Source of the DNA: Ostreococcus lucimarinus | Taxonomy: Eukaryota | Length of the DNA: 64,000 bases | NCBI GenBank assembly: GCA_000092065.1 | Contig: CP000584.1 | Direction: 5' to 3' (one strand) | Part shown: piece after piece, positions 11,603-39,801 of the stretch | How positions within the stretch are numbered: position 1 is the first letter of the stretch | Layout: each line of letters begins with the position of its first letter | Position numbers and translations under genes: made by a program | Notes under the pieces: model-generated | Seen by the model: only the letters and a program-made list of their open reading frames with translations | Told to the model about the DNA's origin: nothing | The model's database searches: none

Positions 11603-12274
11603 ATGAGCACGTTCAGCGAAGCGCCGGCGGGGAACGCCGCGAAGGGTGCGTCGATCGCGCGGCGACGCGCGGCGCGCGCGACGACGACGCGCGCGCGCGA
11701 GGGAGACGCGAACGCGCGCAAGATGGATGGGTGACGTTGTCGACGCGATCGCGCGCGACGGAACGACGACTGACGACGCGACGACGCGCGCGGTCGACGA
11801 GAACAGGAGCGAAGATTTTTAAGACGAAGTGCGCGCAGTGCCACGTCGCGGAGAAGGGCGGTGGACACAAGCAGGTGCGGACGAGACGACGACGACGCGG
11901 GGATCGCGCGAGGGGCGCGGCGAATCGAGCGCGACGACGCGCTCGATTCGACGCGCGCTCGCGTCGCGAGGGACGACGACGACGCGCGGCGCGCGTGAAT
12001 CGCGACGATCGACTGACGCCGCGACGCACGCTCGATCGCTCGATAGGGTCCTAACCTCGGCGGCTTGTTCGGCCGCGTCTCCGGCACCACGGAGGGTTTC
12101 TCGTACAGCGCGGCGAACAAGAACAAGGGCGTCACATGGAGCGAGAACACCCTGTACGACTACCTGTTGAACCCGAAGAAGTACATTCCGGGCACGAAGA
12201 TGGTCTTCGCCGGTCTGAAGAAGCCGGAAGACCGCGCGGATTTGATCGCGTACCTGAAGGAGAGCACCAAGTAG
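11603..12274 (+). CDS. CYC: Cytochrome c (mitochondrial), three exons: 11603..11645, 11807..11874, 12047..12274
   Basis: The spliced product is [15 protein letters not shown]|[22 protein letters not shown]|[75 protein letters not shown], 112 aa and about 80% identical to Chlamydomonas cyt c. Donors are G|GTGCGT and CAG|GTGCGG, acceptors are gaacag| and cgatag|, and an ACTGACG branch sits in both introns. Confidence 0.9.
11646..11806 (+). other. Spliceosomal intron 1 of cytochrome c (161 nt, phase 1)
   Basis: GTGCGT donor at 11646, GACGACTGACGACG branch at about 11776-11789, acceptor AG at 11805-11806. Splicing restores the conserved [16 protein letters not shown] junction. Confidence 0.8.
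11875..12046 (+). other. Spliceosomal intron 2 of cytochrome c (172 nt, phase 0)
   Basis: GTGCGG donor at 11875, CGACTGACGCC branch at about 12010-12020, acceptor AG at 12045-12046. Splicing restores [13 protein letters not shown]. Confidence 0.8.
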
Positions 12275-12715
12275 GCGTTCGACCTCGCGTTCGCGCGGCT
12301 CGCGCGTCGCGGCGCGCGTCTCTCGCGCGTCCCGCGTCGGTCGTCGCGTCGCATCGAGCTCGTAATATCTTTTAGTCACATGTTGTCCGTCATTTCGCGT
12401 CGCGCTCGCCGAGACGCGCGTCGTCGCGTCGACGCGCGTCGACGCGCCGGCGCCGAGAGCCAAACCCTGTGTGTGCTTTGCGATCGTCAAATTCACTCGC
12501 GCGCGCGAGCGAATCCCTCGTCTTCGCGTCCACGAGCGAAGCGAAACGCCGCGCGTGAACGTTCGCGCGCGCGCGGTCGCGAATCGGTCGACGACCGCGC
12601 GCGATCGCCGCTCGTGGACGCGCGCGATCGCGGAGACGTCAATCGTTGAATCGCATTCGACGTTCTCGCGCGCGCGGCGCTGAAATCGCGCTGACGTCGA
12701 GCGAAATCGCGCGCG

Positions 12716-13993
12716 ATGTACGGTGGCGATGAAGTGAGCGCGGTGGTGATCGATCTCGGGACGCACAGCGTCAAGGCGGGGTACGCGGGACAGGACACGC
12801 CGCAGCACGTGTTTCCGAGCGCCGTCGGCGAGTGCGCGAAGGGCGGGGACGCGGACATGACGGCGGAGGGTGAGAACGCGTCTGCGAGACATTTTGAGGT
12901 GGATAACATGGGAATTAGACGAGACGGGATGGAGGTGACGTCACCGTACGGAGAGAATGGGATGCTGGAGGATTGGGAGGCGGTGGAGGCGATTTGGGAG
13001 CACGCGTTGAAGAAGCGGTTGGCGTTGCAAACGGATGAGCATCCAGTGCTGCTCAGCGAACCCGTGCACAACTCGGATGCGGTACGCGCGAAGATGGTGG
13101 AGCTGATGTTTGAAAAGCACGCGCCGCCGGCGCTGTTTTTGGCGAAGAGTCCTGTGTTGAGCTCGTTCGCCGTCGGGAAAGCGTCGAGCTTGGTGATCGA
13201 CATGGGCGGTAAGCACACGACGGTCTCGGCCATTCACGACGGCTTTGCGCTTCAAAAGTCCGTCGTGCGCTCACCTCTCGGTGGCGAAGCTCTGACGGAT
13301 GTGGTTTTGAAGTATTTAGAGAAGAAAAAGGTTGACGTTCGCCCGCGGTACGCGTTTACGAAGAAGCAGAAGGGCGACGGCGATTTCGACGTCAAGGCGG
13401 TGAATCATCCCAAGACGACGGCATCGTATGCGCTGTTCAAACGTCGTGAGATCATAGAAGATCTTAAAGCGACCGTTTGCACGCTGGACGATCACACGTT
13501 TAACTCGGACGAGCACAAGAATGTGGCGGGCGTGACGTACGAGTTGCCGGATGGGAACACCATCGAGGTCGGCGTCGAACGATTCCAGATCCCGGAGTTG
13601 TTCTTCCAGCCCGAGATATTGCGGGAACTCAATGTGGACGTCCCCGAACTCGGTGAGCTCAAGTCTTTGAAGAGCATCCAAGAACTGGTTTTGGAGTGCA
13701 TCAACAACGCGGACGTCGACGTGCGAAAAGACTTGTGGGGCAGCTTGGTTTTGTGTGGCGGTAGTAGTATGTTCGCTAACATGCGTGAGCGATTGGAAGC
13801 GGCATTGTTCGATCACGCGCCGCAAAACGTAAAGACTAAGGTCGTAGCGAGCATGAACAGCGTCGAGCGTCGCTTCGCGACGTGGATCGGGGGTTCTATT
13901 CTCGCTTCTTTAGGCTCGTTCCAGCAGCTCTGGATGAGTAAGCAAGAGTACGAGGAGCATGGCGCGAACTTGGTTCAGCGCAAGTGTCCGTAG
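12716..13993 (+). CDS. ARP4: Actin-related protein 4 (ARP4/BAF53, chromatin remodelling)
   Basis: ATG at 12716-12718 verified. 'MYGGDEVSAVVIDLGTHSVKAGYAGQDTPQHVFPSAVG' matches the Arp4 N-terminus, and the actin fold runs throughout (425 aa). Confidence 0.8.
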   Translation: MYGGDEVSAVVIDLGTHSVKAGYAGQDTPQHVFPSAVGECAKGGDADMTAEGENASARHFEVDNMGIRRDGMEVTSPYGENGMLEDWEAVEAIWEHALKKRLALQTDEHPVLLSEPVHNSDAVRAKMVELMFEKHAPPALFLAKSPVLSSFAVGKASSLVIDMGGKHTTVSAIHDGFALQKSVVRSPLGGEALTDVVLKYLEKKKVDVRPRYAFTKKQKGDGDFDVKAVNHPKTTASYALFKRREIIEDLKATVCTLDDHTFNSDEHKNVAGVTYELPDGNTIEVGVERFQIPELFFQPEILRELNVDVPELGELKSLKSIQELVLECINNADVDVRKDLWGSLVLCGGSSMFANMRERLEAALFDHAPQNVKTKVVASMNSVERRFATWIGGSILASLGSFQQLWMSKQEYEEHGANLVQRKCP

Positions 13994-14134
13994 TCTCGAG
14001 TGAAATAGCCTTTAATAATCGAGTGTCGAGTGTGATGTAACGTGAACTACAAAGTTGTTGCGCTCGTATCGACTTCGTTTCGGTTGAAAAATTACAGCTA
14101 TTCGGCGTCGCGTCTATGCGTCGTTCAATTCAAA

Positions 14135-14821
14135 TCATCGCTTCATGCGCTTTGCTCGCGAATCGGCGAGGCGTTGCTTCTTGAGATCATCGTAAATGTT
14201 TCTATACTTGTCGTAATCGATCCCGACGTCTTTCTCAGTCTCGGCGCCGATATCCCCCCACAGCTTTTGTTTCTTTTCCCCCGTGCCTTCGAGAACCGTC
14301 TCAAACAAGTTGTTGAATTTTCGTCGACGATCGAGCCAAGCCTCCATCCCTTTCAAAAACGCGTCCTCAATCTTCACGCGCTCACTCTCCGTGATCACCT
14401 CTCCGTTCGCCTTCGCTCGCCGCAACGGTTCGATCTTCTTCTCCAGCGTCTCGTTTTCGTCTTCGACGTCGCGTCTCGCCGCCGCCATCGCCTCCACGCT
14501 CTGCACGTTCCGCAGCGCTCGCAACTGCGATCGCAACCGCCCGACCTCCGCGCTCGCGCGCGCGTTTTCCTCGCTCACCGCCACCGCCTCCGCGCCCATC
14601 GCTCGCAGCGCCTCCGCGTCCGCGACCTCGTCGTCCTGCGTCGCGTAGTACACCTTTTGCTTGCCCGCATCCTTCACTCGAATCGCCCCGTTATCCACCA
14701 GCGCGTCCAAATACTTTTGCGCCAGCCCCTTCTTCACCCCGCTCGCGCCGAGCGCGTCCCCGACGTTCGTCGCGTTCAGCGGCCGATTCATCCGCGCCAC
14801 GTACGCGCGCACCGTCTCCAT
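14135..14821 (-). CDS. HOP2: Homologous-pairing protein 2 (HOP2/TBPIP), a meiotic recombination factor
   Basis: ATG at 14819-14821 verified. The N-terminal winged helix 'YVARMNRPLNATNVGDALGASGVKKGLAQKYLDALVDNGAIRVKDAGKQKVYYATQDD' matches HOP2, followed by coiled coil. Confidence 0.75.
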   Translation of the reverse strand: METVRAYVARMNRPLNATNVGDALGASGVKKGLAQKYLDALVDNGAIRVKDAGKQKVYYATQDDEVADAEALRAMGAEAVAVSEENARASAEVGRLRSQLRALRNVQSVEAMAAARRDVEDENETLEKKIEPLRRAKANGEVITESERVKIEDAFLKGMEAWLDRRRKFNNLFETVLEGTGEKKQKLWGDIGAETEKDVGIDYDKYRNIYDDLKKQRLADSRAKRMKR

Positions 14822-15299
14822 CTCGCGCGTCGATCCCTCGCCCGTTCAAATCGCGCGTCTTCGCGTTTCGTCGCGTCGTCGCGTCGTCTCCTTCGCGTCC
14901 GCGCGTCGCGCCACCGCGCGAACCGTCGACCTCGATCGTCCCACCGCCGTCGAGCGCTCGATCGTCGCGCGCGCGCGCGTGTGCGCGCCGTCGTCGCGCG
15001 CGCGCGGGGTGCCGTCATCGCGATGGCGTTCGAATGATCCGTGTTTTGGACGCGCGCGCCGATCCGCGCGCGCCGTTGGTCGATCCGCGCGCGACACACC
15101 GCGCGCGGCGCACGATCGGCGAGCGCGCGCCCGCGCGAGCGCGCCCGCGAACGACGCGAACGAATTTCCGCGCATCGGAACGCGCGGCGAACGCGCGCGA
15201 ACGACGCGCGCGGAAGACGGGAGCGACGCGCGGAGACGCGAGACGGGACGCGAGCGACGCGCGCGCGGAAACGACGAGAATCGCGCGACGACGGCGACG

Positions 15300-18110
15300 A
15301 TGGCGACGGTGAATCAGGTCGTCGAGCGCGGGTGCTCGATGCTCGTGCATTTCGATCGCGCGACGAGCGCGGTGGAGCTGAAGGAGGCGCTCGAGACGGG
15401 GAACGCGGAAGAGAAGGCGGACGCGATGAAGAAGGTGATCTCGCTGCTGCTGAGCGGGGAGGCGATACCGCAGGTGTTCATCACGATCGTGCGGTACGTG
15501 CTGCCGAGCGACGATCACACGGTGCAAAAGCTTTTGTTGCTGTACATGGAGATGATTGAGAAATGCGGGGCGGATGGGAAGATTTTACCGGAGATGATTT
15601 TGTTGTGTCAAAACTTGCGAAACAATTTGCAACACCCGAATGAGTTTTTGAGAGGGTGCACGCTGCGGTTCTTGTGCCGAATCACGGAGCCGGACCTGTT
15701 GGAGCCGCTGATACCTTCGATCGTGCAAAATTTGGAGCACAGGCACTCGTACGTGCGGAGAAACGCGGTGATGGCGATCAATAAGATTTACGACTTGCCC
15801 GACGGCGAGCACTTGATTCCCGACGCGCCGGAAATCATCGAGTCATTTTTGATGAGCGGGGAAAACGATTTGGGGACGCGTAGGAACGCGTTCTTGATGT
15901 TGTACACGCACGCCCAAGAGCGCGCGGTGAACTATTTGATGAACAATCTGGAATCCGTGTCAAACTGGGGGGACATTTTGCAAACCGTCGTGCTCGACCT
16001 GATTCGCAAGGTTTGCCGCTCGGATCCGACGCAAAAGGGCAAGTACATCAAGGTCATCTTGATGCTGCTCGGTACGAACAACGCATCGGTGGTGTATGAG
16101 TGTGCGAACACCCTCGTGGCGCTTTCGAACGCGCCGACCGCGATCAAGGCGGCGGCCAACTGCTACTGCCAACTCCTCGTGAACCAAAGCGACAACAACG
16201 TCAAGCTCATCGTGCTCGATCGCTTGACTGACTTGAAGAAGGACAACAAAGAATTGTTGCAAGCGATGATCATGGATATCTTACGCGCGATCTCCTCGCC
16301 GAACATCGACATCAAGCGCAAGACGCTCGATTTAGTGCTCGACTTGATCACGCCTCGCAACATCGACGACGTCACGAGCATGTTAAAGACGGAGGTGATC
16401 AAGTCTCAATCTGAGAACACCAGTGAGACTGGAGAGTACCGACAGTTGCTCGTCCAAGCGATTCACAAATGTGCGTTGAAGTTCCCCGAAGTCGCGGGGT
16501 CGGTAATTTACTTGCTCATGGATTTCCTGAGCGACGCGAACAGCGGGAGCTCGGCGGACGTCGCATACTTTGTTCGTGAGATCGCCTTCACGAACAAGTC
16601 GCTGCGTCCGGGGATTATCGAGCACCTGTTAGATTTGTTCTCCACCATTCGTAGCAGCCGAGTGTGCGCGACAGCGCTGTGGATCATCGGTGAGTTTAGC
16701 ACGACGCAGGCGGAGCAAGAGGCGGCGCTCGAAGTCATTCGTATGAGCCTCGGTCCGGCACCGCTCGTCGATGGCCCGGACGGTGAAGAAGAGGACGAAG
16801 ACACCACGGAAACGACGACGCGCCCGGCCGTGTTGGCGGATGGAACGTATGCGACGCAAGCGGCGTACTCGACTTCGGCGGCGATTTCTCAAGTGCCGAA
16901 CTTGCGCGAAATGTTGCTGAAGGGTGACTCCTTCCTTTCGGCGGTGATTGCGAGCACGTTGACCAAGCTTGCGCTCAGAGTGATAGGATCTGGTTCGGTT
17001 CCTCAAGCGCAAAAGAACGCGACACAAGCCGAGTGCATGTTATACATTGTGAGCATGTTGCGCTTGGGAACGAGTGGCAAAGTGCCGATCGAAATGGATA
17101 GAGACTCTAAGGCTCGGTTGGAGTTATGCTTCCACGTCATCGGTCATCCGGAAGAGGCGGATACCGACGTCTGGTTGAAATCGTGCGGAGAATCTTTCGC
17201 TTTGATGATTGAAGAAAAGCTTAGACGCGAATCTCAGGCGAGCGCGAACTCCGACGCCGCACCAGTCGCGCAGGCTGACGATTTGATTGATTTCCATCAT
17301 CTCAAGTCGCGCAAGGGTATGACGCAACTTGAGATTGAAGATGCCGTCGCGACCGATCTCGCCCGAGCCACTGGTTTCATGGACTCGGTCAAGAAGAACG
17401 GACGTAGCCTCGACCGCGTGATGCAACTCACCGGTTTGAGCGACACAGTCTACGCGGAGACGTACGTCACCGTGCACCAGTACGACATCACGCTTGACGT
17501 GACGATGATCAATAGAACGGACGAGCCGCTGCAAAACGTCATGTTGGAACTTTCCACCATGGGTGATTTGAAGCTTGTTGAGCGTCCTCAACCATTTTCG
17601 TTACCACCGTTCGGTTCTCACAACCTGAGAGCGAGCATCAAGGTGAGCTCGACCGAAACGGGAGTCATCTTCGGCAACATCGTGTACGAGACCGCTCGCT
17701 CCGATCGTAATGTCATCGTGTTGAACGACGTGCACATTGATATCATGGATTACATCATCCCCGCGACGTGCAGCGACACGGTGTTTAGAAGCATGTGGGC
17801 TGAATTCGAGTGGGAGAACAAGGTTGCCGTGAGCACAAACATCACCGACGTTCGCAAGTATTTGGATCATATCGTGACTAGCACGAATATGAAGTGCCTC
17901 ACTCCGCCGAGCGCGCTCGATGGCGAATGCGGGTTTCTGGCCGCCAACTTGTACGCCAAGTCCGTGTTCGGCGAAGACGCGCTGGTAAACGTTTCGATCG
18001 AGAGCAACGACGGTGAGATCAGTGGCTTCATCCGAATCCGCTCGAAGACGCAAGGCATCGCGCTTTCGCTCGGCGATAAGATCACGCTGAAGCAATCGAT
18101 CGAAATCTAG
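15300..18110 (+). CDS. COPB1: Coatomer subunit beta (COPB1)
   Basis: ATG at 15300-15302 verified; 936 aa. The N-terminal adaptin trunk 'KKVISLLLSGEAIPQVFITIVRYVLPSDDHTVQKLLLLYMEMIEK' is collinear with COPB1. Everything in track ORF 14661.. upstream of 15300 is antisense to HOP2. Confidence 0.9.
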   Translation: MATVNQVVERGCSMLVHFDRATSAVELKEALETGNAEEKADAMKKVISLLLSGEAIPQVFITIVRYVLPSDDHTVQKLLLLYMEMIEKCGADGKILPEMILLCQNLRNNLQHPNEFLRGCTLRFLCRITEPDLLEPLIPSIVQNLEHRHSYVRRNAVMAINKIYDLPDGEHLIPDAPEIIESFLMSGENDLGTRRNAFLMLYTHAQERAVNYLMNNLESVSNWGDILQTVVLDLIRKVCRSDPTQKGKYIKVILMLLGTNNASVVYECANTLVALSNAPTAIKAAANCYCQLLVNQSDNNVKLIVLDRLTDLKKDNKELLQAMIMDILRAISSPNIDIKRKTLDLVLDLITPRNIDDVTSMLKTEVIKSQSENTSETGEYRQLLVQAIHKCALKFPEVAGSVIYLLMDFLSDANSGSSADVAYFVREIAFTNKSLRPGIIEHLLDLFSTIRSSRVCATALWIIGEFSTTQAEQEAALEVIRMSLGPAPLVDGPDGEEEDEDTTETTTRPAVLADGTYATQAAYSTSAAISQVPNLREMLLKGDSFLSAVIASTLTKLALRVIGSGSVPQAQKNATQAECMLYIVSMLRLGTSGKVPIEMDRDSKARLELCFHVIGHPEEADTDVWLKSCGESFALMIEEKLRRESQASANSDAAPVAQADDLIDFHHLKSRKGMTQLEIEDAVATDLARATGFMDSVKKNGRSLDRVMQLTGLSDTVYAETYVTVHQYDITLDVTMINRTDEPLQNVMLELSTMGDLKLVERPQPFSLPPFGSHNLRASIKVSSTETGVIFGNIVYETARSDRNVIVLNDVHIDIMDYIIPATCSDTVFRSMWAEFEWENKVAVSTNITDVRKYLDHIVTSTNMKCLTPPSALDGECGFLAANLYAKSVFGEDALVNVSIESNDGEISGFIRIRSKTQGIALSLGDKITLKQSIEI

Positions 18111-18168
18111 ACGTGTTTAATCAAATAGCAGCATATGACGTTACAAACCGATCATCGACGCGCCGTAA

Positions 18169-18921
18169 TTAATTACGCGCCGTGATTTTGATATTCTTCG
18201 CGTCGATGTCGGGAATGCCCGCGTTCCGAGCCTCGTACTCCGGAAACACCTTCAAGCACGTCGTCTTGCAATTCGGTGCGAATCGCACGTATCCGCAAAC
18301 TCGATCCGCGCAAAATTGCACGAAGCCCCAAAGTCGATTAAACGCCGCGTCTCGCGCCTTCAGCATCTTTGCGTACTTCTTCGGGTTCGCTCGCAACGCG
18401 TCCCTCTCGGGCGCCTCCTCGAACGTCTCGGGCGCACCGTCCAGAACGCGCACCGTCAACTTTGCCCCCGCGCCGTACACGTTCGACGCCTCCAAATCAT
18501 CCCTCGCTCGCTCCACGATCGCCCGTTCGTCCGCGTTCGCGACGTAAATCACCGGCGCGAACCGCGCGCCCACCTCTGAAAATTGCCCATCCGACCGCGT
18601 CGGCTCGCTCCGTCGCCAGTACGTCCGCATCAGCTCCTCGAACGAGATCCGCGACTCGTCGTACGTCACCCTGACCCCTCGCGCGCCGTCGAGCGCGCCC
18701 GGCGCGACGTCTCGCACGCCGGCGTACTTCAAGTCCAAGTACTGCCGCTCCAAAAACGCCTCGTCTCCCGCGCCGACGAACATCGTCGCCGCGTCCGCGG
18801 GCGCGCGCGACGCGATCGCGACCGCGGCGACGAACGCGACGACCGGTTTCGCGGGCGCGCGCGCCGCGCGCGGCGTCGACGCGCGCGTCGGCGTCGTTCG
18901 CATCGGCACCGGCGTCGACAT
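18169..18921 (-). CDS. MsrA-like (peptide methionine sulfoxide reductase A fold) protein without the GCFWG catalytic Cys, with a signal/TM segment and a Cys-rich C-terminus
   Basis: ATG at 18919-18921 verified (the track start is GTG). 'RISFEELMRTYWRRSEPTRSDGQFSEVGARFAPVIY' resembles MsrA 'ISYEELL..FW..HDPT..NRQGNDVGTQYRS.IY'. The GCFWG region instead reads MFVGAGDEAF. The family assignment is weak. Confidence 0.3.
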   Translation of the reverse strand: MSTPVPMRTTPTRASTPRAARAPAKPVVAFVAAVAIASRAPADAATMFVGAGDEAFLERQYLDLKYAGVRDVAPGALDGARGVRVTYDESRISFEELMRTYWRRSEPTRSDGQFSEVGARFAPVIYVANADERAIVERARDDLEASNVYGAGAKLTVRVLDGAPETFEEAPERDALRANPKKYAKMLKARDAAFNRLWGFVQFCADRVCGYVRFAPNCKTTCLKVFPEYEARNAGIPDIDAKNIKITARN

Positions 18922-18952
18922 CGCGCGCGACCGAGTGACGCCGCGACACACC

Positions 18953-18977
18953 GCGACGCGACGCGACGCGACGCGAC
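18953..18977. repeat. (GCGAC)5 tandem repeat in the 63-bp divergent spacer between the MsrA-like and NOA1-like start codons
   Basis: Read from 18951-18980 as gcgacgcgacgcgacgcgacgcgac. Confidence 0.6.
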
Positions 18978-18984
18978 GCGGACG

Positions 18985-20512
18985 ATGTCGGCGATGACGC
19001 GCGCGCCGGTGATGGCGCGCCGCGCGCGCGCGCGGATCGCGCGCGCGCGCGACGCGGCGAAGGTTTCGACGCGGCGGCGGCGGGCAACGACCGCGACGCG
19101 ATGGGGGCGCGCGCGCGCGTCGATGGACGACGACGACGCGCGGAGCGAGCGGCGATACGTGCGAGAGGGCGATCGTAACGTCGACGTGCGACGGGAGCGG
19201 GTGCGTGGGCGCGAGGCGCGGGCTGGACGCGGACGCGCGAACGCGGCGGCGACGCGCGAGCGCGACGACTGACGACGACGAACGCGGCGGGTGATGATAG
19301 GGGAACTGTTACGGGTGCGGCGTCGCGCTGCAGACGAAGGATGAATCGATCGCGGGGTACGTCGATGCGGCGGAGTACGCGACGAAGGCGGTGCACAGAC
19401 ATTACGACATGATGCTCTGCGCGCGGTGCGCGGCGCTGAGCAACGGGAAATTCGTAAACGCGGTCGAGGGGCAGGGCGGGTTGAAAGCGGCGCCCGGATT
19501 GATCACGCCGAAGCAGCTCAGAGATCAACTGAAACCGATCCGGGAGAAAAAGGCGCTGGTGGTGAAGGTGGTGGATGTGACAGATTTTCATGGGAGCTTT
19601 CTGAAAAAGGTGAGAGACGTCGTCGGCGGGAATCCGATTCTCCTCGTAGTGACAAAGGTTGATTTGTTAGATTCGAAAACGGACCTCGATGCACTCGTGG
19701 AGTGGGTCGGGCGCGAAGCCGAGACGCGACGGCTTTCACTGGCGGGAATCGCGCTCGTGAGTTCTAGGAAAGGATCTGGGATGCGCGACGCCGTACTACA
19801 GATGATGCGCGAGCGAAACGGTCGCGATGTCTACGTCCTCGGCGCCGCGAATGTTGGCAAAAGCTCATTCATTCGGGCCGCGATGGATGAGCTGCGATCG
19901 GCTGGTAATTATTTCGCACCTTCTAAGCGACTTCCCGTGGCGAGTGCGATGCCAGGAACGACGCTCGGAGTGATACCGTTGAAGGCGTTTGAGGGTAAAG
20001 GCATATTGTTCGACACACCTGGTTTGTTCTTACATCACAGACTGAACTCTTTGCTCGGGCCTGATGATCTTTCGACGATGAAACTCGGCGCGTCATTGAA
20101 AAAGTTCGTGCCAAAGACGCCTGAATGCGCCGAGCCGCCTGGGTTTGATTCTTTTCAAGGGTACTCGTTGTGTTGGGGTTCGTTCGTGCGCGTGGACGTC
20201 GTGCGGTGTCCACCGAACGTAGCTTTTTCGTTCTACGGACCCAAATCGCAGCGTGTGGATATCATCAAGACCTCGGACGTTCCACCGACGACGCCTGGAC
20301 AAGAAGAAGCGGCATTGCGCGTGGTGAATGAGATCGACTTTGTACCGCCGACGAACGTAGTCGGCCCTTTGGTCGATCTTTCGGTGTCTGGTCTAGGGGG
20401 CTGGATTCGCGTCGAAAAAACGGATAGTAGAGGCGATGGTGCCATTCTGGCTCGTGTGTATGGTGTTCGTGGCTTAGAGGTTTTCGCTCGCGACGTCATG
20501 CCGACGCCTTGA
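18985..20512 (+). CDS. NOA1: NOA1/YqeH-type circularly permuted GTPase (organellar ribosome assembly), two exons: 18985..19200 and 19301..20512
   Basis: Exon 1 starts at ATG 18985 (MSAMTRAPVMARRARAR..., transit-peptide-like). A GTGCGT donor sits at 19201, a CGACGACTGACGACGACG branch at about 19263-19280, and an acceptor ...tgatgatag| at 19300. Exon 2 begins GNCYGCGVALQ...CARC (CxxC..CxxC zinc ribbon), followed by G4-G1-G2-G3 order motifs 'LLVVTKVDLL' and 'VYVLGAANVGKSSFI'. Without splicing, the conserved Zn ribbon has no in-frame ATG. Confidence 0.8.
19201..19300 (+). other. Spliceosomal intron of the NOA1-like gene (100 nt, phase 0)
   Basis: Donor GTGCGT, ACTGACG branch 27 nt upstream of the AG. 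Flanking reading frames (track ORFs 18583..19272 and 19391..) join in phase. Confidence 0.7.
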
Positions 20513-20598
20513 TTTGTAAATTGTTAATTTTTGTTTGTATCTCCCACGACGTGCACTTTACGAGTACCCTCGACCGCCTCTCTCCACAACGCTTCTCC

Positions 20599-20907
20599 AT
20601 GAATGCTGACGTCGACTCGCTTCCTGAACCGACCGAGATCCAGCGGCAAAAAGGTTGGAAACGCGATTACACGGCAGTGTGGGCCGAACATGCCGACGTC
20701 ATGAAGCAAATCGTTGCGGAAAAACGCACCAAGGCTTTGAACAACTTTCAAACGGAGCAGCACGTCGTGAGTGGCACGAAAATGACAATTTATGATTTCA
20801 CAGGCGGAGTACACGTCACGAGAGCGAAAAATATGGCTCGACGTGACGAGTTGGCGCACGAAGAAGAACGACTGAAAGAATGGAAGCGTGTGAATCAATC
20901 GCCATAG
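20599..20907 (+). CDS. Hypothetical 102-aa protein in a low-GC island (not recognised)
   Basis: ATG at 20599-20601 verified. MNADVDSLPEPTEIQRQKGWKRDY...TKMTIYDFTGGVHVTRAKNMARRDELAHEEERLKEWKRVNQSP. GC is about 48% and codons are not GC3-biased, unlike every neighbour. It could be a real gene with atypical usage or a chance ORF in a 3' UTR. Confidence 0.3.
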   Translation: MNADVDSLPEPTEIQRQKGWKRDYTAVWAEHADVMKQIVAEKRTKALNNFQTEQHVVSGTKMTIYDFTGGVHVTRAKNMARRDELAHEEERLKEWKRVNQSP

Positions 20908-20953
20908 TCGATTTGCAAGTGCTCGCTAATTTTTTCTAAACTGAACGCAATAA

Positions 20954-21760: not shown

Positions 21761-21807
21761 CGCAAGATGGATAGAGGCTTTTCGGCGCGTTTGACATTGA
21801 AAAAATT

Positions 21808-27049: not shown

Positions 27050-27119
27050 CCAACGACGATGTAAACTCTACCAAACGCTATGAATACATTAATACATATA
27101 GACGCCGAATACTACCGCT

Positions 27120-27761: not shown

Positions 27762-27835
27762 GTCGCGCGCGGCGGCGACGGCGTTCGCGCGCGCGCGCGT
27801 CGTCGACTGACGTTCCGCATTGCGCGACTCGACGC

Positions 27836-28879: not shown

Positions 28880-28947
28880 TTCACTTCATTTGTAACGACG
28901 TGCTAGCCAGCGTAGACGACCGAGACGCACACCTCGACGCGTCAGCC

Positions 28948-29859: not shown

Positions 29860-29987
29860 TTGTAATTAGATGTGTGATGATTAGATATTCTAGTGCATGC
29901 AGCTCGCGCGTTCCAAAAAAAGCTATTGATGCGTCGCGCGTCGCGCAGTCGGCGTTTCGATTCGTCGTCGCGTTCTCGCCACCGCTC

Positions 29988-30443: not shown

Positions 30444-30569
30444 CGTTCGCGGGTCGTTCGCGAGTCGGTCGTCGTTCGTCGAGCGCGACGCGAAGTGTCG
30501 AGAATAATCGCGCGAGTCCACGTCCACGTCGGCACAAAGAGACGTCGCGCGGCGACGACGGTGGCCGGC
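30444..30569. promoter_or_regulatory. Divergent promoter region between the thioredoxin and alpha/beta-hydrolase genes (126 bp)
   Basis: Verified start codons at 30443 (minus) and 30570 (plus). Confidence 0.4.
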
Positions 30570-31781: not shown

Positions 31782-31864
31782 TCCCGTCGCGCGCACCATT
31801 TACCACCTCAGCATCTATTTATTTATTGTAACCATCGTAGCACGCGAGCCGACGAAGCGCGAGG

Positions 31865-31905
31865 CGACCGACCGACCGACCGACGACCGACCGACCGACC
31901 GACCG
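31865..31905. repeat. (GACC)n microsatellite in the spacer between the hydrolase 3' end and PRK
   Basis: gaccgaccgaccgacgaccgaccgaccgaccgacgacc, read at 31861-31910. Confidence 0.7.
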
Positions 31906-32250
31906 ACGACCCAAACCGGCGACCGACCAGGCTAAAAAAGTCAGATTCGGTTCACGAATCGCCGGTACCCCCTCCCGCGTTTTTAGCGCATCGACATCGC
32001 CGCGAAATCACATAGTGCGATCGCGCCCTTGCGTACGGTGAATCGCGCGAGTTTGCCCTTTTCGCGCGCGCGCGCCCGCCCCTATCCACCCCGATCGCCC
32101 GCGCGCGCGCTCGGCGCGCGTCCGCGCCTCCCCACGCGGCACTCTTCGACGCACGCACGCGCCGAACGTCTAAACAAAAACTCGCACGCGTTCTTCTCGA
32201 AGAACCGTCCTCGACCTCAGTCGCGCACGCACAAAACCTCTCCAAACACG

Positions 32251-33533
32251 ATGGCTTCCGCGCTCGGATTCGCGACCGCGGTGCGCGCGCGCCCCGTCGC
32301 CGCGCAAAAGCGCGCGACGGCGCCGAAGGCGCGCAGCGCGCGCGTCGTCACGCAGGCGAAACGCGATGGTCCGGTTATCATCGGTTTGGCCGCGGACTCC
32401 GGATGCGGCAAGTCGACGTTCATGCGACGCATGACGTCGCTGTTCGGCGGCAAGGCGACGCCGCCCGAGGGTGGGAACCCGGACTCGAACACGCTGATTT
32501 CGGACACGACGACGGTGCTTTGCTTGGATGATTACCACTTGAACGACAGGCAAGGACGCAAGGATAGCGGTTTGACGGCGTTGAACCTCAAGGAGCAAAA
32601 CTTTGGTGCGTTGCGATGGGAGTGATGCGAGGCGAAACGCGAGACGATCGCGTGTTATCCACAACGCGCGAGACGCGATCGGGACGCGATCGAGACGAAT
32701 GACTGACGATGAACGCGCGTGAACGTTTACGCGATGACGCAGACTTGATGTACGAACAAGTTAAGGCGCTCAAGGAAGGCAAGTCCGTGGATAAGCCGAT
32801 CTACAACCACGTCACCGGTGTCTTCGACCCGGCGGAGAAGATCGAGTCCCCGGAGGTTCTCATCCTCGAAGGTCTTCACCCGTTCGCGGACACCCGCGTG
32901 CGCGACATGTTCGACTTCAAGATCTACTTGGACATCTCCGACGAAGTGAAGTTCGCGTGGAAGATCCAACGCGACATGGCGGAGCGTGGTCACTCCCTTG
33001 AGTCCATCAAGGCGTCCATCGAAGCGCGCAAGCCGGATTTCGACGCCTTCGTCGACCCGCAAAAGGAGTTCTCCGATGTCATCATCCAAGTGCTCCCGAC
33101 CCAGCTCATCCCGGATGACAACGAGGGTAAGATCTTGCGCGTGCGCATGATCATGAAGGAAGGCCTCGAAAACTTCGACGCTCCGTTCTTGTTCGACGAA
33201 GGTTCCACCATCTCTTGGATCCCGTGCGGCCGTAAGTTGACGTGCTCCTACCCGGGCATCAAGTTCTTCTACGGTCCGGACACCTTCTACGGCAAGGAAG
33301 TCACCGTGCTCGAAATGGACGGTCAATTCGACAAGCTCGAAGAGCTCATCTACGTCGAATCCCACTTGTCGAACACCTCCACGAAGTTCTACGGCGAGAT
33401 CACGCAACAAATGCTCAAGTACCAAAACGGCCCGGGCTCCAACAACGGTACCGGTTTCTTCCAGACCATCGTTGGCCTCAAGGTGCGTGAAGTGTACGAG
33501 CGCATCGCGGAGAAGGAGGTTGTCGTTAAGTAA
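32251..33533 (+). CDS. PRK: Phosphoribulokinase (Calvin cycle), two exons: 32251..32605 and 32743..33533
   Basis: ATG at 32251 verified. Exon 1 carries the transit peptide plus P-loop 'VIIGLAADSGCGKSTF'. Donor F-G|GTGCGTTG at 32606, ATGACTGACGATG branch at about 32700-32712, acceptor gacgcag| at 32742. The splice recreates the conserved '...KEQNF-D-LMYEQVKALKEGK' junction (Chlamydomonas: ANDFDLMYEQVKA). 381 aa. Confidence 0.9.
32606..32742 (+). other. Spliceosomal intron of PRK (137 nt, phase 1)
   Basis: GTGCGT donor, ACTGACG branch 35 nt upstream of the AG. The two track ORFs (32029..32625 and 32709..33533) are in different frames and are joined by this intron. Confidence 0.8.
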
Positions 33534-33711
33534 GCTTAGATTCAACTCCCGATTTAGGACGCCGACGCGTCGCTCGTTCTAGCACGAGCGACGAAGAAGC
33601 CTGCAATATTAACGCGAAGGAATTCTTCATCAAATCATTTTCGGCGCATCGCGTCTCCGCGCGCGTCGACTATTAGAAACTACAATCTACATCACCTCTC
33701 TCTCGCGCGCC

Positions 33712-34074
33712 TCACGCCCCGCCCTCGCCTCCTAAAAGATGCGACACGCGCGCCAGAACGGAATCCGCCTCGGGCCTGTACGGGTTCTCCTTGTCTGGAA
33801 TCTCCAACACGCTCGGGATCGCCCTCGCGTGCGCCTCGACGAGAAACCGTATCCTATCCGCCACGACCTGCGTGATGAGCACCACCGCGATGTCGTCCCT
33901 CTGCGTCGTGAACGCCTTGAACGCGTCCGCGATCTCGCTCTCCGTCGTGCGCTCGCCGACGATGAGGTAATTCGCGCGCTGTCTCTCGTCGATGTGTCCC
34001 ACGCCCGCGAGCAGAAAGCCGGTGACGGTGTCCTCGTCGCCGATGACGGCCATGAGCGAGCCCTCCTCGTTCAT
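33712..34074 (-). CDS. VHA-F: V-type H+-ATPase subunit F
   Basis: ATG at 34072-34074 verified. 'LMAVIGDEDTVTGFLLAGVGHIDERQRANYLIV...IPSVLEIPDKENPYRPEADSVLARV' is collinear with VATF (120 aa). Confidence 0.85.
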   Translation of the reverse strand: MNEEGSLMAVIGDEDTVTGFLLAGVGHIDERQRANYLIVGERTTESEIADAFKAFTTQRDDIAVVLITQVVADRIRFLVEAHARAIPSVLEIPDKENPYRPEADSVLARVSHLLGGEGGA

Positions 34075-34173
34075 CGCGCGCGCGCGAGTCGCGCGAGCCG
34101 AACGCGCCGAACGAACCGAATCGAATCGACGCCGCGCGCGCGAGTGGCGACACTTCGCGCCGCGACGCGTGTC
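34075..34173. promoter_or_regulatory. Divergent promoter region between VHA-F and the BCD1-like gene (99 bp)
   Basis: Verified start codons at 34074 (minus) and 34174 (plus). Confidence 0.4.
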
Positions 34174-35040
34174 ATGGCGTCCCGGCGCGACGGCGCGCGC
34201 GGCGACGACGCGTGCGCGACGTGCGGGAGGGGTCCGAGCAAGTACACGTGCCCGGGATGCGCGCGACGGTCGTGCGGATTGGAGTGCGTGCGAAGGCACA
34301 AAACGACGCACGCGTGCGATGGGAAGCGGAATCGCGCGGCGTTCGTGGACATTCGCGAGTTCGGAGACGCGGACGTCGTGCGGGATTATCGATTCTTGGA
34401 GGAGGTGGGGGCGGAGGGCGAGCGGGCGAAGCGGTGGCGGCCGACGTTCGGGGACGAGGACGTCGGCGGCGACGCGAATCGAAAAGGCGGACGCGGCGGC
34501 GGAGGACGCGGGAGAGGTAGGGGAAACGGCGCGATGAGTCAGGCGCAGCGAGCGATGGATGCGTTGAAAGCGAAATGCGCCGAGCGCGGGGTCGAGGTGC
34601 GATTCATGGCGAACGGCATGGCGCGGCGACGGTCGAACACGACGACGCATCATCGCAAGAGAGACGAGTTGTCGTGGAGGTTAGAGTGGGTGTTTCACAT
34701 CAATAGCGAGCGCATCGTGCGCATCGATGAAAAAGTAGAGGAAAGCAGCGCGCTGCGCGACGCGTACGCGGCGCACGTCAAGGAGATGACGTTGGCGGTG
34801 GAGAATAAAGCGTCGATGGCGCCGTTCAAGCTCGCCGAGCGCGACGGCGACGTCCGATTCGACGTCGTGATGGAGAAGTTCGACACCCCCGCCAACGCCA
34901 AGGTTTGGATCCCGATCGATTTACGCGATACCATCGCGAGCGCGTTGAGAGGCAAGACCGTCTTGGAGTTTCCAACGTTTCACGTCGTTCCCAGAACGTC
35001 CGCCGAGAAGGACGGCGAAGTCGTTGCATCAAAACAGTAA
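34174..35040 (+). CDS. zf-HIT protein, BCD1/ZNHIT6-like (box C/D snoRNP assembly)
   Basis: ATG at 34174 verified. An N-terminal HIT zinc finger 'CATCGRGPSKYTCPGCARRSCGLECVRRHKTTHAC' is followed by a BCD1-like C-terminal domain. Confidence 0.55.
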   Translation: MASRRDGARGDDACATCGRGPSKYTCPGCARRSCGLECVRRHKTTHACDGKRNRAAFVDIREFGDADVVRDYRFLEEVGAEGERAKRWRPTFGDEDVGGDANRKGGRGGGGRGRGRGNGAMSQAQRAMDALKAKCAERGVEVRFMANGMARRRSNTTTHHRKRDELSWRLEWVFHINSERIVRIDEKVEESSALRDAYAAHVKEMTLAVENKASMAPFKLAERDGDVRFDVVMEKFDTPANAKVWIPIDLRDTIASALRGKTVLEFPTFHVVPRTSAEKDGEVVASKQ

Positions 35041-35577
35041 AAACCTAGCGGTTCGCGTCGTTCGCGTCGTCCTCTCCCGTCGCGCGCCCTCGCGCGTCCT
35101 CCGTCCCTCCCTCTCCGCCCTCGTCGTCCTCGTCGCCGTCCTCCGCCGCGCCCGCGGGCGCCACGCACGGCCGCATCGCGGGGTCAATCGCCATCCGTCG
35201 CACGTCGCGCGCGCGCGCCACCCGCGCGCGATCCCACGCGAACGCGCGCGCGTGCGCGCCCGCGCGCGCGCGCGCCGCGTCGCCGCGTCTTTCGTCGTCG
35301 TCCGCGCCGTCGGTATTCGCCATCGGTAGGTATCCCACGCGCGTCGACGAATGAATCAATCAATCCATGCGCGCCAACCGACGCGGCCGGGGAGGATACG
35401 AGCCGTCGCGCCGGCGCGACGTCGCCTCGCATCGAGGCCACGGCGAGCGCCATGGCACTCATTCTCGTCGAGTTTTCTACATATTTAACATGATTTAGAA
35501 CCATGTGTACAGAAATCGCGAATGCGTTTTGTCCAGCCCGCGCGTCGCGCGCGAAACGCGCCGCCGACGGCGGCGAA

Positions 35578-35634
35578 CCGACGGACGACGGACGACGGAC
35601 GACGGACGACGGACGACGGACGACGGACGACGGA
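35578..35634. repeat. (GACGGAC)n heptamer tandem repeat, about 8 units, in the helicase 5' region
   Basis: acggacgacggacgacggacgacggacg..., read at 35581-35640, 60 nt upstream of the helicase ATG. Confidence 0.7.
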
Positions 35635-35692
35635 CGCGACGCGACGCACACTCCGACGCGACGTCGTCCGTCGACGCCAACCGACCGGCGGC

Positions 35693-37940
35693 ATGGGGAA
35701 GACCAAGGACGCCAAGGAGGACAAGAAGCGCGAGAAGCGCGAGAAGCGGGACAAGAAGGCGCTCGAGGCGGCGGCGACGACGACGACGAAGAAGAAGCGG
35801 AAGACGGTGCGAGCGGCGACGAGAGGCGACGACGACGAGAGACGCGGACGAAGGGAACGCGGACGAACGCGCGCGCGCGATCGCGTCGATGGGGGCGCGA
35901 AAGCGACGGGAGAGGGAGGGAAGACTGACGACGGACGCCGACGACGGGTCGCGCGCGCAGGAGGATTCGGATTCGCGGGAGACGACGGAGAAGAAGAAGA
36001 AGAGGAAGAAGTCGACGAGCGAGGCGAGGGAGGACGTCGAGGGTGAAGATGCGATCGAGGTGGGGACGCCCGAGCCCGAAGAGCCGAACCCGTTGGCGCT
36101 GGATAATTTCGCGCTGAGCGAGCCGGTGAAGGCGACGCTGCGGAAGAAGGGATTCGACGCGCTCTTCGCCATTCAAGCCGAGACGCTGGAGATCGCGCTG
36201 AGTGGTAAGGACGTGGTCGGACGCGCGCGCACGGGGTGTGGGAAGACGTTGGCGTTCGTTTTGCCGATCGTCGAGGAGATGGCGAAGATTTCGCCCATGC
36301 CGGCGAACGGGCGCCGCGTACAAGGTCGTCGGCCGATGTGCGTGGTGCTGGCGCCGACGCGCGAACTCGCGAAACAGGTGTTCGCCGACTTTGACTGGAT
36401 AGGAAACTCGTTCGGGTTTAAGTCCGTCTGTGTGTACGGTGGGACGCCGTATCGCGAGCAAGAGATGGGTTTGCGCGGCGGGTGCGACGTCGTCATCGGT
36501 ACTCCCGGACGCATGAAGGATCATTTGGAGCGCAAGACGTTGATGATGGACAAGCTCAAATTCAGGGTGCTCGATGAAGCCGACGAGATGTTGAACATGG
36601 GATTCGTGGACGACGTCGAGTTGATCTTGAAGAGCTCCGGAGACGTTCAGACACTGCTTTTCTCGGCCACCTTGCCCCCGTGGGTGAAGGACATCGCGAA
36701 ACGTTTCTTGAAGCCAGACTACGCCACGGTTGATCTGGTCGGCGACCAAAAGCAAAAGGCGAGCGGGGCCGTCCAGCACATGCTATTACCTTGTCAATGG
36801 AGCGATCGTGTCGACCTCGTCTGCGACGTCATTCGTTCCAAGGCCCCGGGCGGCGGACGCGTCATCGTGTTCTGCGATACCAAGCGCGACTGCGGCGAGC
36901 TCTGCGACAACTTGCAAAAGGAAATCCCGAAGGGTGCGAAGGCGCTTCACGGCGACGTCAGCCAAGGTCAGCGCGAAGTCGTCTTGGCTGGTTTTCGAGA
37001 AGATAAGTTCCAAGTCTTGGTCGCCACCGACGTGGCGGCGCGAGGTTTAGACATCACCGGCGTCGAGCTCGTGATTCAGTGCGAACCGCCGAAGGACGCC
37101 GAGACGTACATTCACCGCTCGGGTCGCACGGGACGCGCTGGGGCCACTGGCATTAGTGTCACGCTGTGCACGCCGCGTTCCGAATGGGCCGTACCGAACA
37201 TCGAACGAAAAGGCGGATTCAAGTTTGTTCGCATCGGACCGCCGCAACCGGCGGAGATGGCAAAGGCGGCGGGAAAAATTGCGGGAGAGCAAATCCGCAA
37301 GGTGCACAAGGGCGCCGCAAAGCTCTTCATGGACGTCGCCCGAGACTTACTCGAGGGCGAAGATAGCGATAGTGAGGAAGGTCGCGATCCGGTTGAGGTG
37401 CTCGCCATGGCGATCGCCAAGCTCGCCGGCCACGGCGAGCTGAGACAACGGTCGTTGTTGACTTCTCACTCGGGCCAGACGACGCTGTTGTTCACCGCGG
37501 GCGAGACGCAAATCAGAACGCCGACGTACGTGTGGAACTTCTTGCGTCAACGCATGGACGAAAACGATTTGCAGCTTCGTCGCTTAACATTGAGCGTGGA
37601 CAATATGGCTGCGGTCTTCGACGTGCCCTCTGAGCTCGCCGATAAGTTTTGCGCCTTGTCCGAACCCGCATCGAGCGGCAAGTCTGCCGTGTCCATCACC
37701 GCGTGTGAAGAATTACCAGAGCTGAGTCAGCGGCCGCAATCCGGCGGTGGTGGCGGAGGCTATGGCGGCGGTGGACGTGGCGGCGGTGGCGGTGGCGGCG
37801 GTCGTTTTGGTGGACGTGGCGGCAACTATGGCGGCGGCGGTCGCTCTCCGGGAGGAGGAAGGTTTGGCGGGCGAGGACGAGGGTCGCCGGGAGGTCGTTT
37901 CGGCGGTAGAGGCGGCGGAAGAGGTCGAGGACGCTATTAG
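35693..37940 (+). CDS. DEAD-box RNA helicase of the DDX21 / plant RH7 type (helicase core, GUCT domain, RGG tail), two exons: 35693..35806 and 35961..37940
   Basis: Exon 1 starts at ATG 35693 (MGKTKDAKEDKKREKREKRDKK..., Lys-rich). GTGCGA donor at 35807, GAAGACTGACGACGG branch at about 35920-35934, acceptor gcgcgcag| at 35960. Exon 2 carries the Q motif, 'ARTGCGKT', 'DEADEM', 'SAT', 'HRSGRTGRAG', then a GUCT-like region and a (G)nRGG/RFGGRG C-terminus. Confidence 0.85.
35807..35960 (+). other. Spliceosomal intron of the DEAD-box helicase (154 nt)
   Basis: It joins the Lys-rich N-terminal frame (track ORF 35522..) to the helicase frame (track ORF 35505..). Donor GTGCGA, ACTGACG branch about 30 nt from the AG. 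Confidence 0.7.
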
Positions 37941-37985
37941 ACGTGTTAGACGTGTTGTAATCCATTCGTTAATATCACACTTATT

Positions 37986-39801
37986 CTACTTCTTCGGCTT
38001 GGACGAGTAGAACTCATCCAGCTTCGTATCGTACGATTCCATGACGAGCTCGGATCGTACCTTGCGAGCGGAATCCGTGGCGACGCCTACGAGAATCAAC
38101 AAGGAAGTGCCCGCAAAACCGCGGAAAGTTTGCAAGCCGGTAATTTGCTCTACCGCACCCGGAGTCAAGGCGAGCGCTCCCAAGAATACGCTTCCTAAAA
38201 CCGACAAACGCTCCAAGACCCGAGTGATGTAATCGCGTGTCGCGGCGCCGGGACGAACGCCCGGGATGGAGGCGCCCTGGCGCTTGAGCTGATCTGCGAC
38301 ATCCTTCGGCTCGAGTTGGAGGAAGGTGTAAAAGTAATTGAAGAAGCAAATCATAGCGACGTTCACCGGGACGTAGCCGGCACCACCACCAGGGCTAAGG
38401 AACCGCGCCACGCCGAGCACGGCGCCGTTGTCCGTGAAGCGCGTGAGCGTCGCGGGCAACGCGAGCAAAGAAGAAGCAAAAATAATCGGCATCACCCCGG
38501 CGCTGTTCACTTTGAACGGCAGGTATGATGACTTAGCCAAACCACCAGCGTTGAATCGCGTGCTATAGTTCATCGGAATCTTACGTTCAGCCTCTTGAAC
38601 GTACACGATTCCCAACGTCGTGAGCGCGAAAGCGCCGAAAAACACCGCGAGCACAGACGAGTCACCTTTTTCTTGAGCCATTGACACCGTTTGACCCACG
38701 GAAGACGGCAAAGCACTGACGATGTTGGCAAAAATCAATAAAGACGTCCCGTTACCGAGTTTGATTTCGTTCAAAAGCTCGCCGATGTACATGAGAATCA
38801 TGGCGCCGGCGGTCAGCGCGCAGCTTTGTTCAAACAACCAAATCGGCGTGAAATCCTCGACGAAGGGGCGCACGTACAAGCACTGACCCACGGCTTGGAC
38901 GATGGCAAATCCAAGCGCGCCGTACCTACAAAATAAGAAACACAGTCTCTGTCAGTCTCCATTCATGGTCGAATAAAAAACGCGTGCTCGTGTCGCGTAG
39001 CTCAGTTTCCGTTATTCTTTTCAGGCCATCGACGCGTCGTAACGCGCCGAAGCTCAATCGAACGAGACCTAAAAGGTCACATCACCGCTTACGCGCATCG
39101 CATCGCATTTACTCGACCGACAACTACTCGACGCACCTTTGATACTGTTGAAATTTGCGCCGTCCCGCCTCGCCCTCTTCCTTTTGCAACTTTTTCAACT
39201 CTGGAAACACGCTCCCCAGCAACTGAAAGATGATGCTCGAGTTAATGTACGGCACGATCCCGAGCGAAAAAATCCCAAGCTTAGAGATGCTCCCTCCCGT
39301 GAGCGTATCGGCGTACGCCATCATCCCCCCTCCTCCCGCGAGCGACTCCGCGAACGCCGCCCTATCGACGCCGCTGATCGGAATGTACGTCCCCACTCGC
39401 GACAGCACCAACAGCGCGAAAATCGTCGCAATCTTCCCCGGCAACTTCCCACCAAAAAAATCTCCCATCTTCGCGTCGCCGCTCGGTCCTCCGCTTCGTC
39501 CGCTCGACATCGCGCGCGTCGCGCTCGGCTTGGTCCAGCCGAACGCCGGCGCGAAGACCCCGTCGTCGCCTCGCTCGACGTCCAGCAGCCCCAGCGGGTC
39601 GAACGTCCCGCTCGCCGGCGGTTGTTTCGCGTACGCGCGCTGTCGCACGTCGCGCGCGGCGTCGCGCGGTTTCGACAGCGTCGCAGCGCCGCATCGCGGT
39701 CGCGCGTGCGCGGTCGCCGCGCGGGACGACGTCGCGGTCGCGCGTCGCGCGTCGACCGCGGGCGCGCGCGGGGCGAGCGCGAGGGGTGCGCGCGCGAGCA
39801 T
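37986..39801 (-). CDS. SECY: Chloroplast SecY translocon subunit (nuclear-encoded cpSecY), two exons: 39801..39137 and 38925..37986
   Basis: ATG at 39799-39801 verified. Exon 1 is the transit peptide plus TM1-3 ('FFGGKLPGKIATIFALLVLSRVGTYIPISG...GIFSLGIVPYINSSIIFQLL...EGEAGRRKFQQYQ'). Donor CAAAG|GTGCGT (exon end 39137), GAGACTGACAG branch, acceptor ttattttgtag| (exon 2 begins 38925). The splice gives '...QYQ-R-YGALGFAIVQAVGQCLYV', the conserved SecY 'QYTRYGT' region. 534 aa. Confidence 0.85.
38926..39136 (-). other. Spliceosomal intron of cpSecY (211 nt, comparatively AT-rich)
   Basis: GTGCGT donor, ACTGAC branch about 30 nt upstream of the AG, and a polypyrimidine 'cttattttgtag' acceptor. 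It separates two minus-strand ORFs in different frames, both with clear SecY homology. Confidence 0.8.

Follow-up and report, generated by a model that had tools for sequence, protein, structure and literature searches.

Rigid splice signals have been described for the introns of Ostreococcus lucimarinus and of its relatives. Among 319 introns of this species that lie outside chromosome 2 and are confirmed by expressed sequence tags, Irimia & Roy (2008, PLoS Genet 4:e1000148; PMC2483917) found ACTGAC in 87.2% and GACTGACG in 66.5%, together with an 'atypical' 5' splice site, GTGCGTG, that carries 4.8 bits. Distances from branch site to AG peak at ~20-35 bp, with a preference for C at -5 and R at -4 before the YAG; the pattern was likened to that of intron-poor yeasts and read as convergent evolution. 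The canonical introns of Micromonas RCC299 and CCMP1545 show AG/GTGCGT donors (a slash marks the splice junction here and below), NCTGAC branch motifs and enrichment toward the 5' ends of genes (Verhelst et al. 2013, GBE 5:2393; PMC3879977), and GacUGAC is found in all Micromonas introner families (Simmons et al. 2015; PMC4540971). The U1 small nuclear RNA (snRNA) of Mamiellales keeps the standard pairing sequence despite GYGCGY donors (bioRxiv 10.1101/2022.06.08.495308). The present analysis concerns a stretch of 64,000 nucleotides of O. lucimarinus DNA (assembly GCA_000092065.1, contig CP000584.1), called the window throughout, and the eight introns found in it. With a probability of roughly 95%, these are ordinary U2-type GT-AG spliceosomal introns with unusually uniform signals, belonging to the 'canonical' class that Mamiellophyceae carry outside the low-GC outlier chromosome.

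Gene models rebuilt from the reading frames yield eight spliceosomal introns in total, 100-388 nt long, with a G+C content of 0.50-0.76. All eight begin with GT and end with AG, as do all 25 instances once orthologs are included, and removal of the intron regains an open reading frame (ORF) in each of the eight models. The introns, with the position of the presumed branch A, and the short first exons are listed here.

11646-11806, plus strand: cytochrome c intron 1, 161 nt, phase 1, donor aagg/GTGCGTCG, acceptor ACAG; branch motif GACTGACG at 11768-11775, branch A 33 nt from the 3' end
11875-12046, plus strand: cytochrome c intron 2, 172 nt, phase 0, donor gcag/GTGCGGAC, acceptor ATAG; branch motif GACTGACG at 12011-12018, branch A 30 nt from the 3' end
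18985 or 19012 to 19200, plus strand: exon 1 of the NOA1/YqeH-type GTPase gene
19201-19300, plus strand: NOA1 intron, 100 nt, phase 0, donor gcgg/GTGCGTGG, acceptor ATAG; branch motif GACTGACG at 19267-19274, branch A 28 nt from the 3' end
32606-32742, plus strand: phosphoribulokinase (PRK) intron, 137 nt, phase 1, donor tttg/GTGCGTTG, acceptor GCAG; branch motif GACTGACG at 32701-32708, branch A 36 nt from the 3' end
35693-35806, plus strand: exon 1 of the DDX21-like DEAD-box helicase gene
35807-35960, plus strand: DEAD-box intron, 154 nt, phase 0, after residue 38, donor gacg/GTGCGAGC, acceptor GCAG; branch motif GACTGACG at 35923-35930, branch A 32 nt from the 3' end
38926-39136, minus strand: chloroplast SecY (cpSecY) intron, 211 nt, phase 2, G+C 0.50, donor aaag/GTGCGTCG, acceptor GTAG; branch motif GACTGACA at 38950-38957, branch A 26 nt from the 3' end, with a T-rich tract
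4129-4164, minus strand: exon 1 of the Rubisco activase (RCA) gene, MSTITQPRCGVK, 12 codons
3741-4128, minus strand: RCA intron, 388 nt, phase 0, donor caag/GTGAGAAA (GTGAGA), acceptor ACAG; branch motif GACTGACG at 3772-3779, branch A 33 nt from the 3' end
55670-55780, minus strand: exon 1 of the Dof zinc-finger transcription factor gene
55515-55669, minus strand: Dof intron, 155 nt, phase 0, after residue 37, donor attg/GTGCGAGA, acceptor GTAG; branch motif GACTGACG at 55552-55559, branch A 39 nt from the 3' end

An earlier note on this DNA had counted seven introns of 72-211 nt, a range that the lengths given above replace. Six of the seven (both cytochrome c introns and those of NOA1, PRK, the DEAD-box gene and cpSecY) lie where it placed them and carry the motifs it listed, as the rebuilt frames bear out. 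The seventh, in RCA, exists as well, with the motif gcgatgACTGACGgcg at 3772-3779 on the minus strand and a spliced protein identical to XP_001417509.1, but its model had to be redrawn: at 3741-4128 it lies outside the 11603-39801 interval to which it had been assigned, and it measures 388 nt with a GTGAGA donor, not 72 nt with a GTGCG donor. The 72-nt version, with its donor at 3807, was rejected because no ATG occurs in the exon that would precede this donor. The eighth intron, in the Dof gene at 55515-55669 on the minus strand, had been missed, and splicing it out restores a frame break.

The signals within these introns vary little. ACTGAC occurs once in each and is preceded by G in all eight (GACTGAC); the next base is G in seven, giving GACTGACG, and A in SecY, giving GACTGACA. 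The branch A stands 26-39 nt from the last intron base, and the gap between motif and AG is 23-36 nt. The donor is GTGCG(T/A/G) in seven introns and GTGAGA in RCA, the last exon base is G in 8/8, and the acceptor is RYAG in 8/8. The fraction of pyrimidines from branch site to AG is 0.32-0.56, which amounts to no polypyrimidine tract in any intron except that of SecY; this lack fits a heavy dependence on the branch motif.

These features suggest how the introns would be recognized. The 5' splice site is G/GTGCG(T/A/G). In the branch site, GACUGAC(G), the penultimate A, 26-39 nt from the 3' end, presumably serves as the lariat nucleophile. From general knowledge of the spliceosome, SF1/BBP and then U2 snRNA, by base pairing, would recognize the branch motif and bulge this A. 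The 3' splice site is an RYAG, usually with no polypyrimidine tract.

What sets the motifs apart is where they lie and not how often they occur. Counted on both strands of the window, ACTGAC is found 21 times against 21.0 expected from dinucleotide shuffles, and GTGCG 335 times against 337. About half of the ACTGAC copies have a GTGCG within 260 nt upstream, and the composite GTGCG...ACTGAC...AG, whose enrichment the earlier note had proposed to measure by a scan and which was scanned here across the window, appears 10 times against 10.5 in shuffled sequence; with GACTGAC in its place, ~4 composites per window are expected by chance. The enrichment is thus absent from the composite, but placement in introns is non-random: the 1478 nt of sense-strand intron hold 8 ACTGAC against 0.24 expected (Poisson P ~2e-10), and GTGCG makes up 7/8 donors against a background of 4.4% of GT sites (P ~2e-9).

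The same figures define how far introns can be predicted by motif search, as had been claimed. The longer motif GACTGACG occurs 9 times in the window against 4.3 expected, and 7/9 of these copies are intronic; as a predictor over 64 kb it finds seven of the eight introns with 2 false hits, a precision of ~78%. The hexamer is far less selective, with 13 of its 21 copies outside introns in coding or antisense sequence, and the composite remains at the level of shuffles. GACTGACG is therefore a useful annotation aid, insufficient alone. Its two copies outside introns were rejected as branch sites, that at 27805 because no AG follows within ~60 nt downstream, and that at 39969 because it is antisense and falls in an intergenic spacer. 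Two such copies, both on the plus strand, against ~4.3 expected for the window as a whole would fit avoidance of cryptic branch sites, on numbers far too small to carry it.

The introns are also concentrated toward the 5' ends of their genes. Their relative positions in the coding sequence run from 0.03 to 0.42, a bias that departs from uniform placement (Kolmogorov-Smirnov P=0.004). All of them lie in the first 42% of the coding sequence, but the claim that all interrupt N-terminal or transit-peptide regions is wrong for three, which lie within conserved catalytic domains: that of PRK after residue 118/381, within PF00485, that of SecY after residue 222/534, within PF00344, and the second of cytochrome c after GGGHKQ, just downstream of the CxxCH haem-binding motif. 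A 5' bias of introns is usually ascribed to the loss of 3' introns through reverse transcriptase.

Proteins and transcripts of O. lucimarinus confirm most of the junctions. Three of the spliced models match RefSeq entries residue for residue, XP_001417250.1 for cytochrome c (112 aa), XP_001417260.1 for PRK (381 aa) and XP_001417509.1 for RCA (415 aa), and the spliced SecY model (534 aa) is present in the protein collection. PRK is a contiguous ORF in 12 mRNA-sized Logan contigs, and the three that were aligned all skip 32606-32742 (junction 32605/32743). RCA is contiguous in five contigs of 1.37-1.40 kb from JGI metatranscriptomes and Logan, and the three aligned (L104-L106) skip 3741-4128 (4129/3740). 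Logan contigs L093-L095 skip exactly 38926-39136 in SecY (junction 39137/38925); the ends of the SecY contigs match the expected transcript ends, one of them shares its sequencing run with a spliced PRK contig, and the transcript-derived SecY protein of O. mediterraneus is contiguous across the junction. The PRK, RCA and SecY introns are removed from mRNA. Exact protein look-ups of the NOA1, DEAD-box and Dof models, including the alternative NOA1 donors, returned no match beyond prokaryote-style ORF calls, and these three models accordingly stand without a confirming annotation.

Comparison across the genus places the introns in a longer history. A pooled set of 25 orthologous intron instances has ACTGAC in 24/25, the remaining one reading ACTGAT, with a preceding G in 24/25. 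C at +4 is kept in 24 and G at +5 in all 25, and GTGCG as a whole in 19, the other donors being GTACG, GTTCG, GTCCG and GTGAG. The statement that every donor is GTGCG, true of 7/8 introns in the window, is therefore better read as a preference than as a rule. In the pooled acceptors, position -4 is R and position -3 is Y without exception (25/25), and 14/25 carry C at -5. The interiors of orthologous introns cannot be aligned, and the motif persists within them; these comparisons show purifying selection on GACUGAC, the donor and RYAG.

Intron lengths in O. tauri, taken as the NCBI gene range minus the length of the coding sequence, are 201 (SecY), 105 (DEAD-box), 118 (PRK), 332 (RCA) and 346 nt (cytochrome c), and the introns delimited by homology agree with them exactly. 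Those of PRK and SecY occupy the identical sites, the former with a GTACGT donor and GACTGACG. The position and ACTGAC of cytochrome c intron 1 are kept in O. tauri (L012) and in a sister Ostreococcus (L007); the orthologs of intron 2 keep ACTGAC, with a GTGCGC donor in O. tauri and either GTTCGT or GTCCGT as donor in the sister species. RCA orthologs in O. tauri and the sister species keep GACTGAC with a GTGCGC donor. The Dof intron interrupts the same codon in 8 further metagenomic Ostreococcus contigs of 45-100% protein identity, where it reads ...GGAYTG/GT(G/A)CG, ACTGACG and YAG/GA(T/G)GCGATATTCGC around an unalignable interior of varying length. Altogether, 7/8 positions are common to O. 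tauri and/or other Ostreococcus lineages, and only the NOA1 intron is absent from O. tauri. In an independent test on 42 kb of O. tauri, five of six GACTGAC copies fell in annotated introns.

Two other accounts of the shared motifs have to be weighed against that of ordinary spliceosomal introns. The introns might be introner elements (IEs), a mobile, self-propagating family like IE-C or ABC-IE of Micromonas, in which case common descent would explain what they share. IE-C of Micromonas RCC299 does have a highly conserved GACTGACG (PMC3879977), and introner families share GYRaGu, GacUGAC and CAG (PMC4540971); within the window, the NOA1 intron is the one missing from O. tauri, and it shares its branch context, CGACGACTGACGACG, with cytochrome c intron 1. 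Pairwise local alignments among the eight introns nevertheless gave short, low-complexity, GC-rich matches, no better than those between diverged orthologs, and BLAST within the window and related loci recovered no extra copies. Lengths of 100-388 nt contrast with ~67 nt for IE-C, introner elements favor gene centers where these introns are biased to the 5' end, and sharing of 7/8 positions among Ostreococcus lineages marks the introns as old, which weakens this account further and leaves it extremely improbable.

The second account, that GT...AG pairs were simply picked because they contain motifs that the base composition makes common, draws its force from the chance-level totals of ACTGAC, GTGCG and their composite, and from the RCA donor of the earlier note, which was wrongly chosen in just this way. 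Exact matches to RefSeq proteins, however, settle five junctions without recourse to the motif, spliced RNA contigs define three with single-base accuracy, the O. tauri lengths come from an independent annotation and agree, and the motif is conserved across species inside introns that otherwise do not align. An ascertainment artefact is, on this evidence, almost inconceivable.

NOA1 and the DEAD-box gene are the weaker cases. An intron is required in NOA1 because the frame of exon 2 is closed upstream by TGA TGA TAG, with no ATG before the conserved zinc-binding CYGCG motif. The joined product reads ...RRER/GNCYGCG, to be compared with ...ARERARCYGCG in O. tauri. Three in-frame GTGCG donors are available, at 19159, 19186 and 19201, of which 19201 fits GTGCGTG best. 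The RefSeq entry XP_001417253.1 is 5'-partial, starting at CYGCG without exon 1, and the model given here supplies its probable 5' exon. The O. tauri ortholog is a single intronless ORF of 460 aa (L012 17201-18583), and the NOA1 locus of P0094 is again O. lucimarinus, 99.2% identical and uninformative for gain versus loss. A recent gain through a low-copy introner-like or reverse-splicing process in Ostreococcus, which the almost perfect consensus signals of the NOA1 intron and its branch context, shared with cytochrome c intron 1, might suggest, seems very unlikely; we know of no introners reported in the genus, and loss in O. tauri is at least as likely as gain.

For the DEAD-box gene, the evidence is divided. 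The RNA-like contig L093 (Logan SRR28369095; window 35505-44357), which joins ATG2, SecY and DEAD-box transcripts, retains the 154-nt DEAD-box intron and lacks that of SecY. Since a retained intron would put the frame out of register, the DEAD-box intron may be spliced inefficiently or be subject to retention. The same segment, and the presence of a contiguous 683-aa ORF, would also be explained if this gene had no intron and started at an internal ATG (MGARKRRER..., ~35886), the MGKTKD... frame being an upstream ORF. The O. tauri annotation, by contrast, places an intron of 105 nt at the homologous site, with GTGCGA as donor, GACTGAT as branch motif and a CAG acceptor; the exon-1 peptide MGKTKD...KKKRK is conserved, with O. 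tauri differing mainly at third codon positions; and donor, branch site and acceptor in the window are all consensus-like. An internal start is thus rather unlikely, and less likely than intron retention. A natural variant (P0112) carries a length change that alters the frame relation, which also speaks for the intron. Of the continuous unspliced transcripts that the earlier note had named as evidence against the introns, the RNA-like contig L093 gives one example, at the DEAD-box intron; the introns of PRK, RCA and SecY are spliced out.

Several points weigh against reading all eight as uniform spliceosomal introns, and the retained DEAD-box intron in L093 is one of them. The use of the motif's A as branch point is drawn from motif, spacing and conservation. 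The NOA1 and Dof junctions rest on sequence comparison, and those of cytochrome c on the RefSeq match and a transcript-derived homologous protein. Finally, the sample comprises eight introns, one with a non-consensus donor (GTGAGA) and one with a branch site ending in A.

Some introns carry further features of their own. In SecY, a core of ~90 nt at 38992-39096 on the minus strand is 93% identical to O. tauri L011 10359-10463, and the rest of the intron has diverged. Its local alignment score is 148, against at most 23 for shuffles. The core holds a C-box-like GUGAUGU and a D box CUGA, and its terminal stem differs in sequence between the two species yet pairs in both predicted folds. An internal AGGUCUCGUUCG is complementary to what we take to be a universal 18S segment, CGAACGAGACCU. 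Rfam returned only a weak match of this intron to SNORD53/92 (E=2.6, below gathering). The core looks like a putative intron-hosted box C/D snoRNA, which may explain the length and higher A+T content of the SecY intron.

Both Calvin-cycle genes carry GTTATCCAC on the sense strand of their introns, at 4026-4034 (minus strand) in RCA and at 32654-32662 (plus strand) in PRK. The same element is found in the O. tauri PRK intron (L011), with GTTTATCCAC in the O. tauri RCA intron (L012) and GTTATCCGC in that of the sister species, in introns that are otherwise unalignable. It may be a cis-regulatory element of the GGATAA, I-box or MYB-like kind located in introns. When up to one mismatch is allowed, 22 matches occur in the window against 6.1 expected, many of them coding, so that this excess may reflect codon usage. 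Cytochrome c intron 2, in turn, contains a 42-nt near-perfect inverted repeat that could form a hairpin at 11915-11956. Apart from one at 11960, the within-species polymorphisms of this intron all fall in the hairpin (11924, 11925 and a 1-nt indel at 11928), and an indel of one nucleotide among natural variants fits non-coding sequence.

The setting of these introns is the bulk of the genome. The window averages ~60% G+C (range 0.50-0.67), and codon-usage scoring with Pfam annotation gives ~38 densely packed genes, among which the 8 introns are distributed. Four window-encoded proteins match RefSeq entries of strain CCE9901 exactly, among them an actin-related protein of 425 aa at 12716-13993 (XP_001417251.1), and the window is syntenic with O. 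tauri chromosome 4 (CAID01000004.2). By G+C content, gene density and this synteny, the introns lie in the GC-rich, intron-poor part of the genome and not in a low-GC outlier region. Six metagenomic contigs (L001-L006) are 99.5-99.7% identical to the window, with too few polymorphisms for a comparison of introns and exons among these within-species variants. No Rfam family reached its gathering score in a scan of the window. Elsewhere, a 433-aa ORF on the plus strand at 33739-35040, with BCD1/zf-HIT domains, overlaps a strongly coding minus-strand segment at 33712-34077. By synteny with O. tauri the latter is V-ATPase subunit F (~120 aa), and the BCD1 gene, 298 aa long in O. tauri, should be shorter than the plus-strand ORF of the window, which overstates it.

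The consensus, spacing and 5' bias described here had already been published for O. lucimarinus and its relatives, and their recovery from the window is a correct rediscovery; the earlier note was right in essence and went too far in its particulars. The local gains are the corrected RCA model, the conserved Dof intron and the NOA1 exon. The wider question behind the pattern, the convergence of intron-poor genomes on rigid splice signals, is not advanced by the window.

A comparison with the introns of known systems bears this out. The canonical introns of O. lucimarinus (PMC2483917) carry the same signals, and nothing of substance differs; the window sample is small and includes the GTGAGA donor of RCA and the GACTGACA of SecY. 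Introns of the outlier chromosome (BOC1/chromosome 2) are a different class, shorter than 75 nt, AT-rich and without a recognizable branch motif, whereas those of the window are longer, reach a G+C content of 0.76 and all carry GACTGAC. The earlier note had suggested a comparison with Micromonas, but the window is Ostreococcus; the canonical introns of Micromonas resemble those described here in donor, branch motif, 5' bias, singleton sequences and partly conserved positions, and differ in a branch point 43-52 bp before the acceptor, against 26-39 nt in the window. IE-C and ABC-IE of Micromonas are alike in GACTGACG/GacUGAC, with a GYRaGu-type donor, a CAG acceptor and a sense-strand orientation in genes. 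These elements, however, form repeated families, with ~200 near-identical copies of ~67 nt at lineage-specific positions and a bias to gene centers; the window introns, 100-388 nt long and at positions common to Ostreococcus species, have no sequence in common beyond the signals. The analogy with a yeast-like rigid branch point in a GC-rich, intron-poor genome is the same that Irimia & Roy drew. With the introns of hemiascomycete yeasts (GUAUGU...UACUAAC), those of the window share an intron-poor genome, a near-invariant branch hexamer, a strong donor other than GUAAGU and a 5' bias. They differ from them in ACUGAC, with G for A before the branch A and with flanking Gs, in the donor GUGCGU, and in belonging to an unrelated lineage.

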